Source: Candidatus Eiseniibacteriota bacterium (GTDB taxonomy: Bacteria; Eisenbacteria; RBG-16-71-46). Taken from it: a DNA stretch of 64,000 bases. Under the pieces are notes generated by a model that saw nothing but the letters and a program-made list of their open reading frames with translations, was not told where the DNA came from and made no database searches. The stretch is from positions 266,457 through 330,456 of the forward strand of contig JBGAML010000002.1 of NCBI GenBank assembly GCA_044223005.1, in the 5' to 3' direction. The translations under genes were made by a program, and so were the position numbers. Position 1 is the first letter of the stretch. Each line of letters starts with the position of its first letter. Below are positions 13,355 through 21,602 of this stretch, piece after piece.

Positions 13355-13969
13355 TCAGTGCGCGGCGCGTGCCGCGAGCGGCGCGCGCACGCTGATCGCG
13401 CCGCGCAGGTCCCCGGCCGCATAGCCGGTCGCCTCGTCCGCCGGGTAGCGCTCGGCCAGCAGCGCCCGCACGGGTGGCGAGAGGCGATCGGCCGGGCCGT
13501 GGCAGGCGAGGCAGGGCTCCTGCAGGGCGATCGGCTTCAGGTAGCGGATCTCGGCGCCGCCCTCCGGCGTGGCGACGACGAGCAGCGTCTCGGCGGGCAA
13601 CCGGCCGGCGATGCGATCCGCCTCGAACGCGGCGAGCACCGCGGCTTCGAGCGAATCGGGCGAGTTGCCGGGATTGCGCAGCCGCGTGCCCACGCGCCGA
13701 ACCGTCACGCCATCGCGCTGGTGGGCTTGCGTGCGGACCTGGGCGGAATCGGCGCACACCGCGATCGCGGCGCCGGGCCCGCCACGCTCCAGTTCGCTCT
13801 TGAGCAGCGTCATCAGGTCGCCGCCGAGCGCGTTCGCCGCGGCGCGCACGCGCTGGACGTCCGCGGAGTCGGGGGCCGGAACCGAGTGTGCGACGGGCGC
13901 GTTCGACGAGCAGCCCGCAGCGAGCACCGAGCCGAGCAGGAGCAGAGAGAGAGTGATCGTGGCGTTCAT
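13355..13969 (-). CDS. DUF3365-like lipoprotein with a C-terminal c-type haem-binding motif (CLACH)
   Basis: The start MNATITLSLLLLGSVLAAGCSS is a lipobox. CLACHG matches CxxCH. It lies downstream of the SQR gene on the same strand. Confidence 0.6.
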   Translation of the reverse strand: MNATITLSLLLLGSVLAAGCSSNAPVAHSVPAPDSADVQRVRAAANALGGDLMTLLKSELERGGPGAAIAVCADSAQVRTQAHQRDGVTVRRVGTRLRNPGNSPDSLEAAVLAAFEADRIAGRLPAETLLVVATPEGGAEIRYLKPIALQEPCLACHGPADRLSPPVRALLAERYPADEATGYAAGDLRGAISVRAPLAARAAH

Positions 13970-14194
13970 GTCGGGTGGCAACCGTTTCGGGTGGTGCACG
14001 CCGCGCGGTCGCGCCGCGGGAGCGGTGTGCGCGGGCATGCGATGGAAGGTCGACGTCTCGGGTGCATCGCTCACATCCCCGGCAGGTGCGGCACGCGCCG
14101 CGGGCCTGCACGAGGTGGGTGCGCCGAGCAGTTCTGGACGATTCGCGCCCGCCACGGCGCGCGGGCGCGGCCGAGCGAGCGTGGAACGAATCGT

Positions 14195-14377
14195 TCAGCG
14201 ATGTCCGCGGTGGCTCAGCCCGATGATGCGGATCATGCGCAGGTTGATCTCGACGAAGCGCCACATCTGCCACGGGATGAACGTGCGCCAGAACACCGTC
14301 GACGGCGTGGGCTTCGTCGCGTAGAACGCGGGATCCAGGTGGCGCGGCTTCGCGCGTTCGGCGGGAGTCGTCGTCAT
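14195..14377 (-). CDS. Small (60 aa) hydrophobic protein translationally coupled to SQR
   Basis: Its ATG lies 4 nt after the SQR stop and has a GGAGTGA RBS. The peptide is ...FWRTFIPWQMWRFVEINLRMIRIIGL. I found no family assignment. Confidence 0.4.
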   Translation of the reverse strand: MTTTPAERAKPRHLDPAFYATKPTPSTVFWRTFIPWQMWRFVEINLRMIRIIGLSHRGHR

Positions 14378-14381
14378 GCGC

Positions 14382-18475: not shown

Positions 18476-18628
18476 GTCGCGTCTCGAACTTCCCGCCACT
18501 TGCGCCGCCGCCCACGGCATGCGCCCCCTGCGGCCAAACGCGCTCCGAGCCGAGACTTCGACGCGATCTCGCCCGGCGGGAGGCGCGTGCCTTCCGCTCG
18601 TCTCCGTCGTCGTCGTGGGAGGGCCGCC

Positions 18629-19792
18629 GTGAAACTCGTCACCGTCACGCACGATCCCCAGCGGGGCTGGTCGCAGCCGCTCGATTCGCAGCTCGATTCC
18701 CCGCACACGCTGGTGCTCGTGTTCGGTTCTCCCGACGCCACGCAGGTCGCGGCGCCGCTCGCCGAGCTCGCGCGCGCGCTGCCGCAGGCGCACGTGCTCG
18801 GCTGCTCGACCGCGGGCGAGATCCACGGCGACAAGATCCAGGACGACGGGCTCGTGGCCGCGATCGCGCGCTTCGAGCGCACGGAGCTGGCCGTCGCGCG
18901 CACGCACGTGGCGCAGGCGGCGGATTCGTTCGCGGCCGGTGAACGGCTGGCGCGCGAGCTCGTGCGCGAAGGACTGCGCGGCGTGTTCGTGCTCTCGGAC
19001 GGCCTCAACGTCAACGGCAGCGAGCTCGTGCGCGGGCTCTCGTCGGTGCTGCCGCCCTCGGTCGTGATCTCGGGCGGGCTCGCGGGCGACGGCTCGCGCT
19101 TCGAGCGCACGTGGGTGGTCGAGAACGGAGCGCCCGCGCCCGGTGTCGTGTCGTGCGTCGGCTTCACCGGCGATGCCGTGCACATCGGGCACGGCTCCAA
19201 GGGTGGCTGGGACAAGTTCGGGCCCGAGCGGCGCGTCACGCGCGCAGCTGGCAACGTGCTCTACGAGCTGGACGGCAAGCCCGCGCTCGAGCTCTACAAG
19301 ACCTACCTCGGCGACCGCGCCGCCGGCCTGCCCGCGACCGGGCTGCTGTTCCCGCTCGCGATCCGCGCCGCCGCGGGCGACGAGAAGGTGCTCGTGCGCA
19401 CGATCCTCGCCGTCGACGAAGCCACGCAGTCCATGACCTTCGCGGGCGACGTGCCCGAGGGCTCGCTCGCGCAGTTGATGCGCGCCAACTTCGAACGCCT
19501 GATCGCCGGCGCCGGTTCGGCCGCGCTGGCGACCGGCGCGCTGCAGGCGCCCGGCGCGCGCGAGGCCGACCATCTCGCGATCGCGATCAGCTGCGTGGGC
19601 CGCCGGCTCGTGCTCGGCGAGCGCACCGAAGAAGAGCTCGAAGCGACGCTCGAAGGTCTGCCGCTCACGGCGCATCAGGTGGGCTTCTATTCGTACGGCG
19701 AGATCTCGACCTATGCGTCGGGCATCTGCGACCTGCAGAACCAGACCATGACGCTCACGTCGATCCGCGAGGACCTGCCGCGTGCCGCCTGA
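18629..19792 (+). CDS. FIST-domain sensory protein (FIST_N + FIST_C)
   Basis: The GTG start has a GGGAGGG RBS. LVFGSPDATQ...VLGCSTAGEI is the FIST N motif. Its stop overlaps the start of the next gene by 11 nt. Confidence 0.75.
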   Translation: MKLVTVTHDPQRGWSQPLDSQLDSPHTLVLVFGSPDATQVAAPLAELARALPQAHVLGCSTAGEIHGDKIQDDGLVAAIARFERTELAVARTHVAQAADSFAAGERLARELVREGLRGVFVLSDGLNVNGSELVRGLSSVLPPSVVISGGLAGDGSRFERTWVVENGAPAPGVVSCVGFTGDAVHIGHGSKGGWDKFGPERRVTRAAGNVLYELDGKPALELYKTYLGDRAAGLPATGLLFPLAIRAAAGDEKVLVRTILAVDEATQSMTFAGDVPEGSLAQLMRANFERLIAGAGSAALATGALQAPGAREADHLAIAISCVGRRLVLGERTEEELEATLEGLPLTAHQVGFYSYGEISTYASGICDLQNQTMTLTSIREDLPRAA

Positions 19793-21602
19793 GGCGGACG
19801 GAATCCTTCATCCGCTGCTCACGCGCCAGATGCGGCGTCTCGGGCTCGCGGCCGACGGCGCGCCGCCGGGCGTCGAGGCCTGGCCCGCGCTGCTCGAACG
19901 CGTGAGCCGTTCGTACCGCGAGGCCGACCAGGAGCGCTACACCAACGAGCGCTCGCTCGAGCTCTCGTCGCAGGAGATGCAGGAGCTCTACGCCAACCTG
20001 AGCGTCGAGCGCGACCGGCTCCGCTCGTTGATCGCCGCCGTCGGCTATGGCCTCGTGCTGCTCGACCCGCAGGGCCGCGTCACGTTCGCGAACCCAGAGG
20101 CCGAGGCGCTGCTCGGCTGGAGCGCCGCCGAGCTCGGCGCGCAGGACGTGTTCGCGCTGCTCGAAGGCGACGCCGCCAATCCCGAGGGCTCGCTGCTTCG
20201 TGACGCGTTCGTGCGCGAGGTGATCGCCCAGGGGCTACCCGCACGCGCCGCCGAGGCCACGTTTGCGCGCCGCGACGGCAGCCGCGTGCCCGTGTCGTGG
20301 GCGATGAATCCGTTCGAGCAGAACGGGCGCGTGACCGGCGCGTACCTGATCTTCCACGACGACACGCACCACAAGCGGATCGAGGACGAGCTGCGCCGCG
20401 CGCTGCACGACGCCGCGGCCGCGAGCCGCGCCAAGAGCGAGTTTCTCGACAACATGAGCCATGAACTGCGCACGCCCATGAACGGCGTGCTCGGCACCAT
20501 GGAACTGCTGCTCGCGATGCCGCTGCCGCCCGAGCAGCGCGAGCTGGTCGAGGTGGCGCAGCGTTCGGGTGAGGGCCTGCTGCAGATCCTGGTCGACCTG
20601 CTCGACTTCTCGAAGCTCGAAGCGGGGAAGATGCAGCTGGAGGAGCGGCCTTACGACGCCGGCGCGCTGGTCGCCGAGGTCGCGCAGCTGCTCGCGCGCT
20701 CCGCGGCGCAGAAGGGGCTCGAGCTGCGCGTGCGCGTCGCGCCCGAAGTGCCGCCGCTGCTGCTCGGCGACGCGGCGCGAACGCGCCAGATCGTGGTCAA
20801 TCTGCTCGGCAACGCGATCAAGTTCACGCAGCGCGGGCACGTCGCCGTCGCGGCGAGCGTGGTGGAAGAAGGCGCCACGGCGTGGTTCCAGCTCGAGGTC
20901 GCGGACACCGGCATCGGCATCGCACCCGAGGTACAGGCGCGGCTCTTCCAGCCGTTCACGCAGGCCGACGGCGCCATGAACCGGCGCTTCGGCGGCACCG
21001 GCCTCGGGCTCGCGATCACGCAGCGGCTCGCCGAGGTCATGCACGGCCGCGTGTCGGTGACGAGCGCACCGGGAGAGGGCTCGACGTTCCGCGTACAGCT
21101 ACCGCTGGTGGAAGCGCCCGCCACGGCGATCCCGGTCGCCGCGCCGCCCGTGGCGCCCGAGCCCGAACTCGCCGGTCGCGCGCCGGCCGAGCACTCGTTC
21201 GCCGGGCTGCGTGTGCTGGTCGTGGAGGACAACACGGTCAACCAGCGCGTGATCCGGCGGCTGTTGGAGGGCTTCGGCTGCGAAGTCGCGCTCGCCAACG
21301 ACGGCGTCGAGGGCGTCGAGGCCTGCGGTGCGCATGCATACGACGTCGTGTTCATGGACTGCCAGATGCCCAACATGGACGGCTTCCAGGCCACGCACGC
21401 GATCCGCGAAGGCGAAGGAGAAGGCCGCCGCGTGCCGATCGTGGCCGTGACCGCCAACGCGCTCGCGGGCGATCGCGAGCGCTGCCTCGCCGCGGGCATG
21501 GACGACTTCCTCACCAAGCCCATCAAGGCCACCGGCCTCGCCGCCGCGCTGGAACGCTGGGTGTCCCACGGCGGCGACGCCGGCGAGGTGCGCGCCGCCT
21601 AG
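19782..21602 (+). CDS. Hybrid sensor histidine kinase/response regulator (PAS-HisKA-HATPase-REC)
   Basis: The H-box MSHELRTPMNGVLG, N/G boxes and C-terminal receiver (VLVVEDN...DVVFMDCQMPNMDG...TKP) are all present. It is coupled to the FIST gene. Confidence 0.85.
   Translation: MPPEADGILHPLLTRQMRRLGLAADGAPPGVEAWPALLERVSRSYREADQERYTNERSLELSSQEMQELYANLSVERDRLRSLIAAVGYGLVLLDPQGRVTFANPEAEALLGWSAAELGAQDVFALLEGDAANPEGSLLRDAFVREVIAQGLPARAAEATFARRDGSRVPVSWAMNPFEQNGRVTGAYLIFHDDTHHKRIEDELRRALHDAAAASRAKSEFLDNMSHELRTPMNGVLGTMELLLAMPLPPEQRELVEVAQRSGEGLLQILVDLLDFSKLEAGKMQLEERPYDAGALVAEVAQLLARSAAQKGLELRVRVAPEVPPLLLGDAARTRQIVVNLLGNAIKFTQRGHVAVAASVVEEGATAWFQLEVADTGIGIAPEVQARLFQPFTQADGAMNRRFGGTGLGLAITQRLAEVMHGRVSVTSAPGEGSTFRVQLPLVEAPATAIPVAAPPVAPEPELAGRAPAEHSFAGLRVLVVEDNTVNQRVIRRLLEGFGCEVALANDGVEGVEACGAHAYDVVFMDCQMPNMDGFQATHAIREGEGEGRRVPIVAVTANALAGDRERCLAAGMDDFLTKPIKATGLAAALERWVSHGGDAGEVRAA

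Follow-up and report, generated by a model that had tools for sequence, protein, structure and literature searches.

Gene content of the locus

A 64-kb stretch of contig JBGAML010000002.1 from a Candidatus Eiseniibacteriota bacterium (here called the window; ∼71% G+C) encodes a sulfide:quinone oxidoreductase (SQR), and the gene for this enzyme, sqr, is followed directly by a 60-amino-acid (aa) open reading frame (ORF) whose product we refer to as the micro-protein. The present analysis concerns this gene pair, which is inherited together in every related locus with downstream DNA, and the genes that surround it. Because long spurious ORFs are common at ∼71% G+C, gene models were fixed by domain and homology evidence. 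All seven genes (7/7) proved to be real, at the positions initially annotated or within ∼70 nucleotides (nt) of them: three on the minus strand (sqr, the micro-protein gene, and a gene for a Tll0287-like heme protein) and four on the plus strand (cydA, cydB, a FIST gene, and a hybrid histidine kinase gene). Gene calls on an independent Logan contig of identical sequence returned identical proteins of 484, 60, 204, and 732 aa. The initial annotation had described sqr, a small ORF, a lipoprotein with a CxxCH motif, divergent cydAB genes, and a FIST/kinase pair, and this description was correct in all essentials. The sqr-cydA intergenic region spans 188 nt (15837..16024), cydB overlaps cydA by 8 nt, and the kinase gene overlaps the FIST gene by 11 nt; the extent of the FIST gene agrees with that of its orthologue in a related locus (L083). 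Scans of the window for tRNA genes and Rfam families gave no matches. Features are collected in Table 1, in which AF2 denotes AlphaFold2 and HMM denotes hidden Markov model.

Table 1. Coordinates of genes and other features in the window
Feature	Position	Strand	Evidence
SQR gene (sqr), 484 aa, most likely type IV (SqrD-like)	14382..15836	-	phmmer against the PDB, AF2 model, Foldseek, homologues
60-aa micro-protein gene	14195..14377	-	Directly after sqr; family HMM 90 bits, E = 6e-26
Tll0287-like (PF11845, formerly DUF3365) heme-c lipoprotein gene, 204 aa	13355..13969	-	PF11845 E = 2.8e-22
Bipartite promoter-like motif GAATCC-N16-CTCTCAC 5' of sqr	15887..15915	-	Alignment of sqr upstream regions
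cydA, bd oxidase subunit I, short Q-loop, 446 aa	16025..17365	+	PF01654 E = 6.6e-139, 463 bits
cydB, bd oxidase subunit II	17358..18404	+	PF02322 E = 8e-76, 256 bits; TIGR00203 200.9 bits (cutoff 117.3)
GC-rich 18-bp hairpin 3' of cydB	18439..18480	+	RNA fold versus shuffles
FIST_N + FIST_C protein gene, 387 aa, GTG start	most likely 18629..19792	+	PF08495 E = 1.1e-52; PF10442 E = 4.5e-36
Hybrid histidine kinase gene, PAS-HisKA-HATPase-REC	19782..21602	+	Pfam domains; H-box SHELRTP at residue 226
Matches to the C terminus of an 829-aa protein of a related locus (L081)	233-514, 10632-10943, 44246-44542, 55680-56075		tblastn

A micro-protein gene follows the SQR gene in every related locus with downstream DNA

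The neighborhood of sqr was compared across 87 related loci, comprising 80 from species-representative genomes (SQR identity, 63-77%) and 7 from closer relatives (77-85%). The 80 loci represent Acidobacteriota, Actinomycetota, Gemmatimonadota, Planctomycetota, Armatimonadota, Myxococcota, Spirochaetota, Pseudomonadota, and Campylobacterota. A tblastn search with the 60-aa ORF matched nearly all loci, and a profile HMM run on six-frame translations raised the tally to every locus having downstream sequence. A micro-protein homologue lies directly 3' of the SQR gene in 83 of the 87 loci, from at least nine phyla, and at the four loci that gave no match (L002, L005, L028, and L051), the contigs end no more than 77 nt past the SQR stop codon. 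The HMM matched only one place per locus, directly after the SQR gene, with the sole exception of L052. At that locus, two tandem copies of the micro-protein gene (L052:11459-11647 and L052:11807-12061) follow the SQR gene, while exactly one is present in the others. A single-sequence word-index search had returned four relatives of the ORF, and the poor conservation that this implied was overturned by the tblastn, profile, and HMM searches.

The association also held in the reverse direction: the micro-protein genes of Mariprofundus and Thiothrix each directly follow a 485-aa Pyr_redox_2 gene. No micro-protein partner accompanies a 448-aa SQR of a different type (in L093) or the second SQR-like gene of L081. 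Pairwise distances among the micro-proteins correlated with those among the corresponding SQRs (Mantel r = 0.82; 0 of 2000 permutations as high). The SQR and the micro-protein are a pair inherited together, and the micro-protein is the only neighbor that always accompanies this SQR clade.

The spacing of the two genes is tight. In the window, the sqr stop codon (TGA, 14384..14382) is followed by GCGC and then by the ATG of the micro-protein gene at 14377, and 7 nt ahead of that ATG, within the final sqr codons, lies a GGAG (Shine-Dalgarno) sequence. Gaps of 1-8 nt prevail among the high-GC lineages, and those of Proteobacteria and Campylobacterota usually measure 16-90 nt. According to the initial annotation, sqr is translationally coupled to a hydrophobic 60-aa ORF; the tight coupling is borne out, with a 4-nt spacer and no overlap, and the product is amphipathic rather than classically transmembrane (see below). 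Whether an HMM search would find the small ORF traveling with SQR had also been raised. It does so more strictly than had been guessed, the misses being contig ends.

The micro-proteins form an unannotated family with one conserved face on a predicted helix

The 60-aa ORF is clearly a genuine coding gene. Its G+C content is 0.90 at the third codon position, compared with 0.52 and 0.54 at the first and second, close relatives often differ by synonymous-only codon changes, and the amino acid motif is kept from low-GC Campylobacterota to this 71%-GC genome. Clustered at 90% identity, the family yields 1,598 groups, and at 50% identity it yields 363; named members are all labeled "hypothetical" or "uncharacterized," bar one stray label from the Joint Genome Institute (JGI). 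Searches against Pfam and NCBIfam gave no match even at lenient thresholds, and a PDB profile search gave nothing at E values up to 10. A gene-fission origin or a known fold for the micro-protein, sought through these PDB, Pfam, and NCBIfam profiles, was set aside, as none was found. In the searchable literature, including papers on SqrD, no mention of a small protein co-encoded with SQR was found.

Family members are 50-65 aa long (45-70 aa in called ORFs) and are encoded directly 3' of an SQR of 480-492 aa, and the window ORF shares all of these traits. The family motif is P-T-x2-T-x-F-x-R-T-x3-W-Q-x2-R-F-x2-I-N-x-K-M ... S-H. Residues P23, R31, Q37, R40, F41, and N45 are invariant, and T24, W36, I44, M48, and H56 are nearly so; the window ORF carries all the invariant residues.

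The AF2 model of the micro-protein has a disordered N terminus, a short helix at residues 25-32, and a long one at residues 34-57 with a predicted local distance difference test (pLDDT) score of >90; the chain kinks at Pro35, and the whole forms an amphipathic helix of roughly 33 residues. Mean hydrophobicity of the helix is low, and its hydrophobic moment is 0.4-0.5. Averaged over 19 residues, the Kyte-Doolittle score has a maximum of 0.56 in the window micro-protein, and 1.9 is reached only in Campylobacterota. As modeled, it looks like an interfacial or amphipathic helix and not a classic transmembrane one. Its conservation follows the helical repeat, with a peak at 96-100 degrees (matched or exceeded by 36 of 10,000 shuffles), and Q37, R40, F41, I44, N45, M48, and S55 therefore fall on one helix face; the other face is hydrophobic, though variable in sequence. 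Such a pattern would be expected of a helix that packs on a conserved protein on one side and meets lipid on the other.

The SQR retains the type I cysteines and is most likely type IV

The window SQR is a genuine SQR homologue. Its best solved relative, by phmmer search of the PDB, is the Aquifex SQR 3hyv (E = 1.6e-43), followed by 3sz0 (E = 7.4e-31), and identity to type I structures is 25-29%. Cys141 aligns with the flavin adenine dinucleotide (FAD)-proximal Cys124 of the Aquifex enzyme, and Cys177/179 and Cys412 align with the redox-active Cys156 and Cys347; C141, C177, C179, and C412 are invariant across 48 SQR homologues. An AF2 model of the window SQR (pLDDT, 81; predicted TM-score, 0.85) was compared with known structures by Foldseek, and the top 11 matches were all type I SQRs, with target-normalized TM-scores of 0.79-0.84. 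A glycine-rich inserted loop, GMGGIHLRHGGYVTPSK, at residues 217-233 has no counterpart in type I structures; the family conserves it, and its pLDDT in the model is <50. In the AF2 monomer, residues 410-484, which follow the third Cys, have pLDDT values of 46-72 by 10-residue block and form a single helix (456-475). Homologues number more than 7,700, and JGI names many of them SQR; the 120 best measure 480-493 aa and show at least 72% identity. Homologues in Chromatiaceae, Sulfurimonas, Sulfurovum, and Sulfuricurvum are 485-492 aa long with 63-66% identity.

SQRs of types I and IV are sister clades with the type I cysteines in common (PMC4584964), and Chromatiaceae possess SqrD and SqrF only (PMC10892978; PMC3368242). 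Type IV is favored because the type I cysteines are kept, because homologues occur in Chromatiaceae, Sulfurimonas, Sulfurovum, and Sulfuricurvum, and because Chromatiaceae are restricted to SqrD and SqrF. Type VI was considered against the enzyme TrSqrF, which has a mass of ∼44 kDa, a third Cys at residue 332, and a single C-terminal helix after residue 356 (PMC9666304). A type VI enzyme is recognized by a Cys near residue 332 flanked by Val and Ile, a mass of ∼44 kDa, and a helix near residue 357. The window SQR departs from this profile, with 484 aa and a third Cys at 412 flanked by Ala/Val, and type VI (SqrF) was rejected. The window SQR is most likely type IV (SqrD-like), as judged from its sequence. 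The idea of a partner that explains the membrane retention of C-terminally truncated TrSqrF was dropped along with the type VI assignment.

A candidate accessory subunit

On balance, we lean toward a reading in which the core of the locus is a two-gene unit, a type IV-like SQR plus a 60-residue accessory subunit, with a bd oxidase as an optional quinol outlet. The conserved face of the micro-protein would dock on SQR, most likely at the C-terminal membrane- and quinone-binding region, and its variable hydrophobic face would lie in the membrane interface. The micro-protein would then act as an accessory subunit that helps to anchor the enzyme or completes the quinone site. Docking is proposed because the helix has one conserved face and the SQR C terminus (410-484) is poorly ordered, with one helix. 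A stronger version, that SQRs of this clade are obligate heteromers with an amphipathic-helix subunit of ∼55 residues that anchors the flavoprotein and/or completes the quinone site, is put forward more tentatively, as a possibility that falls short of an even chance. Type I SQRs have two C-terminal amphipathic helices, and the C-terminal region elsewhere serves as membrane anchor and quinone channel (PMC9666304).

Several points weigh against the subunit reading. Docking and function are what we infer, and the physical contact is a proposed one. The alignment behind the AF2 monomer of SQR was shallow (at least 72% identity), and both the C-terminal disorder and the single helix rest on that model. 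The type IV call was reached by elimination and from literature statements; CT0117, Alvin_2145, and Suden_619 are the reference proteins of that type. No fusion of SQR to the micro-protein was found in the best 150 of 363 representative clusters or in the best 120 clusters. SqrD-type enzymes are, to our knowledge, active without any reported partner, so that the partner may be dispensable for catalysis in vitro. In addition, SQRs have been described as single-subunit enzymes (PMC10892978). Finally, cydAB is missing from ∼90% of related loci (see below), so respiratory coupling is facultative at best.

The main rival to the subunit reading is that the micro-protein is a transient biogenesis factor, active in membrane targeting or export of a signal-less flavoprotein, in flavinylation, or in oligomer assembly, and not a stoichiometric subunit. 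The same strict co-occurrence and tight translational coupling would follow from such a role, and a partner of this kind is not noted in searchable published SQR work. There is also room for a helper, since the periplasmic face is reached by some SQRs that have no signal peptide. However, the 4-nt coupling and the one conserved helix face suit an equimolar complex equally well, and the micro-protein alignments contain no twin-arginine or other recognizable targeting motif. We consider a biogenesis role unlikely, though a serious contender.

It is also conceivable that the micro-protein has its own function downstream of SQR chemistry, such as the handling of polysulfide or sulfane sulfur or the regulation of the enzyme, and does not stably bind SQR. 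This would be compatible with its co-occurrence with one SQR clade only and with conserved motifs outside the helix, namely, S-H-(H/R) at the C terminus and Y-A-T-K-P-T at the N terminus. Yet the micro-protein has no conserved Cys to carry sulfane sulfur, it is very small and essentially one helix, and its divergence closely tracks that of SQR, so we regard an independent function as very improbable.

Cytochrome bd genes are a recurrent but optional neighbor of sqr

Both CydA and CydB of the window score above curated thresholds for bd quinol oxidases, and the key residues are present. In an alignment of CydA with E. coli bd-II (7ose), the residues at His19, Glu99, His186, Met393, and Glu445 are identical; these positions, on the numbering we assume, are the heme ligands and key glutamates. 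Genes for cydAB lie within 10 kb of the SQR gene in 9 of the 87 loci, comprising 7 of the 80 distant loci (L004, L014, L050, L056, L059, L066, and L080) and 2 of the 7 close relatives (L081 and L082). The synteny of sqr and cydAB proposed in the initial annotation is upheld to the extent that it recurs at these loci, but it is missing from ∼90%. The cydAB genes are a recurrent but optional neighbor of sqr.

The arrangement differs among the linked loci. In L081 the order is cydA-cydB-sqr-micro-protein on one strand, and the divergence of cydAB from sqr seen in the window recurs in L082 and Geothrix (L014). Only cydA, cydB, sqr, and the micro-protein gene are common to the window, L081, and L082, the flanks being unrelated by tblastn of called genes. 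A gene for an Rrf2-family regulator (L082:9319-9756) lies between sqr and the divergent cydAB genes of L082 and has no counterpart in the window. Across the seven distant loci with cydAB, CydA is 31-64% identical to the window CydA. Linked bd oxidases with identities of only 31-38% include those of Gallionellaceae, in which the spacing of the cydA and cydB matches suggests a longer form of CydA; linkage was also found in Vicinamibacterales and Geothrix.

Inherited synteny or chance, with no functional meaning, would account for an adjacency that is seen in only 9 of the 87 loci within 10 kb, and the window, L081, and L082 represent one lineage. Against this, nothing but cydAB, sqr, and the micro-protein gene is common to those three, with differing flanks and with the orientation inverted between L081 and L082, and the linkage also involves bd oxidases that are only 31-38% identical, an apparently longer CydA in Gallionellaceae, and the Vicinamibacterales and Geothrix. 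By a rough estimate, which was not computed, a one- or two-copy operon would fall within 10 kb by chance in <1% of genomes. A meaningless adjacency is in our judgment improbable. The recurrence in both orientations, with different bd oxidases and unrelated flanks, suggests that the linkage arose or was kept repeatedly, and this argues for selection of a functional link. In a scheme of optional coupling, SQR would pass electrons from H2S to quinone, and the divergent short-Q-loop cytochrome bd would reoxidize the quinol with O2, unpoisoned by sulfide. Oxidases of the bd type are sulfide insensitive, and the linkage, as a genomic pattern, fits a sulfide-tolerant route from quinol to O2. No description of sqr-cydAB adjacency was found in the literature that was searched.

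A further gene adjoins the sqr-micro-protein pair in three of the seven closest relatives, though not in the window. It encodes a pyridoxal phosphate-dependent protein of the Cys_Met_Meta_PP family (L081:11698-12903, L082:11701-12906, and L085:8519-9733). This family includes cystathionine gamma-lyase and O-acetylhomoserine sulfhydrylase, which make or use H2S, and the adjacency hints at endogenous sulfide handling.

Putative regulatory sequences around sqr and cydAB

When the regions upstream of sqr were aligned for the window and its close relatives, a bipartite motif emerged, GAATCC-N15/16-CTC[TC][CG]AC, with its downstream end ∼45-80 nt ahead of the sqr start codon. The motif occurs once in the window, versus 0.03 occurrences expected, and stands at the equivalent position upstream of sqr in L001, L081, L082, L083, and L085; in L081 it is also found 5' of the second SQR-like gene. 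In shape it resembles promoters of extracytoplasmic function (ECF) sigma factors. The motif was not found before cydA, the heme protein gene, or the FIST gene in the window. A search of the sqr-cydA intergenic region for a shared operator had been suggested, and the conserved motif there precedes sqr only. In L081, where cydAB lies upstream of sqr on the same strand, the motif falls inside the 88-nt cydB-sqr gap, so that sqr and the micro-protein gene appear to have their own promoter even in that arrangement.

The hairpin 3' of cydB has a predicted folding energy of -48.3 kcal/mol, compared with a shuffle mean of -35.0 (z = -4.45; 0 of 200 shuffles as stable). It separates cydB from the FIST gene and, as judged from sequence, probably marks the end of the cydAB transcript. 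A hairpin 3' of the small ORF was not significant (z = -1.5), and scans for sigma-70 promoters and intrinsic terminators were uninformative in the 71%-GC DNA of the window.

The heme lipoprotein and the FIST/kinase pair are lineage-specific neighbors

The 204-aa protein encoded downstream of the micro-protein gene, across a 225-nt gap, scores 80 bits against PF11845 (cutoff, 24); its lipobox reads LAAG-C20, and residues 153-157 form a CLACH motif. In its alignment with PDB 5b82 (E = 5.2e-12), both CLACH and Cys72 (in AVCA) are aligned, and the Cys of 5b82 that pairs with Cys72 is presumably the axial (distal) heme ligand of Tll0287. By sequence, the protein belongs to the Tll0287-like heme-c PAS-like proteins (PF11845), and it is predicted to bind heme. 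None of the 87 related loci has a Tll0287-like homologue within 10 kb of its SQR gene. Four metagenome relatives of the heme protein were found: two have unrelated neighbors, and the one in L093 has a different-type SQR ∼2 kb away. At L093, a 602-aa stop-free ORF (L093:1038-2846) begins with a Tll0287-like domain and also matches outer membrane efflux (OEP/TolC-like) proteins, and on the opposite strand, at a distance of 1-2 kb, is the gene for the 448-aa SQR (L093:3783-5129), which is 29% identical to the window SQR. We take this proximity as a hint, not a pattern.

The FIST protein scores 68.2 bits for NosP, below the family cutoff of 450. For the kinase, the scores are 187.3 bits for near_NosP_CTERM (NahK/ErcS-family; cutoff, 400) and 135.9 for NO_HK_NahK (cutoff, 1500), both likewise under the cutoffs. 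Of the 87 loci, one (L083) has a FIST/kinase pair within 10 kb of sqr, 8 kb away and with no cydAB. This Eisenbacteria contig carries two FIST/hybrid-kinase pairs (L083:1-2388 and L083:19331-21458), ∼8 kb to either side of sqr, of which one FIST protein is 62% identical and the other 32% identical to that of the window. With two such pairs within 20 kb, proximity to sqr in L083 may be due to chance.

These data bear on the proposal that all seven genes form one co-regulated unit of sulfide detoxification and respiration, with the FIST/kinase pair as a dedicated sensor and the heme protein as a component. The genes are adjacent in the window, a 62%-identical FIST orthologue with its kinase lies 8 kb from sqr in L083, and one Tll0287-like gene lies ∼2 kb from a different-type SQR in L093. 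The wider comparison runs the other way: the Tll0287-like gene is found at none of the 87 SQR loci and the FIST/kinase pair at one, where the presence of two pairs makes the proximity possibly accidental; a strong hairpin follows cydB; the upstream motif is specific to sqr; and the FIST and kinase proteins have a NosP/NahK-like architecture, not that of a known sulfide sensor, with scores under the family cutoffs. We consider a seven-gene unit improbable. The initial annotation had joined these genes in a single five-part co-regulated module, and support for it is wanting, given the absence of cydAB from ∼90% of loci, the hairpin, and the sqr-only motif. Nor do the data support the FIST/kinase pair as a dedicated sulfide sensor, given its occurrence at 1/87 loci, the hairpin after cydB, and its NosP/NahK-type architecture, or the heme protein as part of a sulfide unit (0/87 loci). 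The heme-c lipoprotein and the FIST/kinase pair are lineage-specific local neighbors, not parts of a conserved unit.

Other features of the window

A 311-aa ORF (21599..22534, minus strand) is convergent with the kinase gene, and its translation reads like a putative MgtC/SapB-type membrane protein. An 829-aa protein of L081 (Peptidase_M28, FlgD_ig) matches four places in the window through its C-terminal part, with 39-44% identity (Table 1). Together with the C terminus of the 732-aa protein (11141..13339), the four matches lead us to guess at a repeated C-terminal sorting-type domain on secreted proteins. The segment 34001-36000 has a G+C content of 0.594 (∼0.70-0.75 elsewhere) with a GC skew of up to +0.167 and could be foreign or otherwise unusual DNA.

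Implications

SQRs are textbook single-polypeptide monotopic membrane enzymes with a central role in sulfide detoxification as well as in sulfur-based lithotrophy and phototrophy. The micro-protein family, which has been unannotated, appears from genome comparison to be the universal genomic partner of one major SQR type. Since it has no Pfam or NCBIfam model and its members carry "hypothetical" labels, defining the family is an immediate gain for annotation. A partnership of the kind favored here, if true, would change how these SQRs are expressed, purified, modeled, and annotated, might explain differences in membrane binding and kinetics among SQR types, and would add one more clear case to the overlooked respiratory micro-proteins. 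The recurrent and convergently assembled linkage of sqr and cydAB gives independent genomic support for bd oxidase as a sulfide-tolerant outlet of electrons from sulfide in nonmodel phyla. What is established is narrower than, and different from, the five-part module first proposed.

Comparison with known systems

The heme lipoprotein resembles Tll0287 (5b82), a His/Cys-ligated heme-c PAS-like protein, in its PF11845 domain, its CxxCH motif, and the aligned Cys (Cys72 in the window protein), and differs in being a lipoprotein in a nonphotosynthetic, high-GC bacterium. The FIST and kinase genes resemble NosP/NahK modules, in which a FIST_N + FIST_C gene precedes and overlaps a PAS-HisKA-HATPase-REC kinase gene; however, the window proteins score far below the cutoffs, and the pair has no conserved link to sqr or cydAB.

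E. coli is reported to sustain sulfide-resistant respiration through cytochrome bd, in work attributed to Forte et al. and to Korshunov et al., both of 2016. The likeness is that a sulfide-tolerant quinol oxidase and an SQR would together give a short chain from H2S to O2; in the window, unlike in the E. coli work, the link consists of genomic adjacency, which is found at ∼10% of loci in the SQR clade. CydX and CydS of cytochrome bd are, like the micro-protein, very small single-helix proteins encoded in a quinone-linked respiratory operon, and such micro-proteins are routinely missed by annotation. They have no sequence relationship to the micro-protein, whose helix is amphipathic and not clearly transmembrane. 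We know of no such small subunit for any SQR.

Among the SQRs, the type I enzymes of Aquifex aeolicus (3hyv) and A. ferrooxidans (3t31) are the closest solved structures, and the positions of Cys124, Cys156, and Cys347 are kept in the window SQR. The latter is ∼55 residues longer, carries the loop at 217-233, and has one modeled C-terminal helix, whereas two are described for type I (PMC9666304). Type VI SQRs (TrSqrF of T. roseopersicina, CT1087, and Alvin_1195) are likewise membrane bound, but the window enzyme is longer, with its third Cys at 412 rather than 332. In A. vinosum, the genes 3' of sqrF (Alvin_1196/1197) have been suggested to attach SqrF to the membrane (PMC10892978); they offer a precedent for sqr-linked accessory membrane proteins. 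The type IV enzymes (CT0117 of C. tepidum and Alvin_2145 of A. vinosum) share with the window SQR the FAD-dependent SQR fold and the type I/IV cysteines (PMC4584964), and homologues of the window enzyme occur in groups with reported conservation of SqrD (PMC4584964; PMC10892978; PMC3368242). A small co-encoded protein goes unmentioned in the searchable SqrD literature, whereas beside the window SQR one is present.

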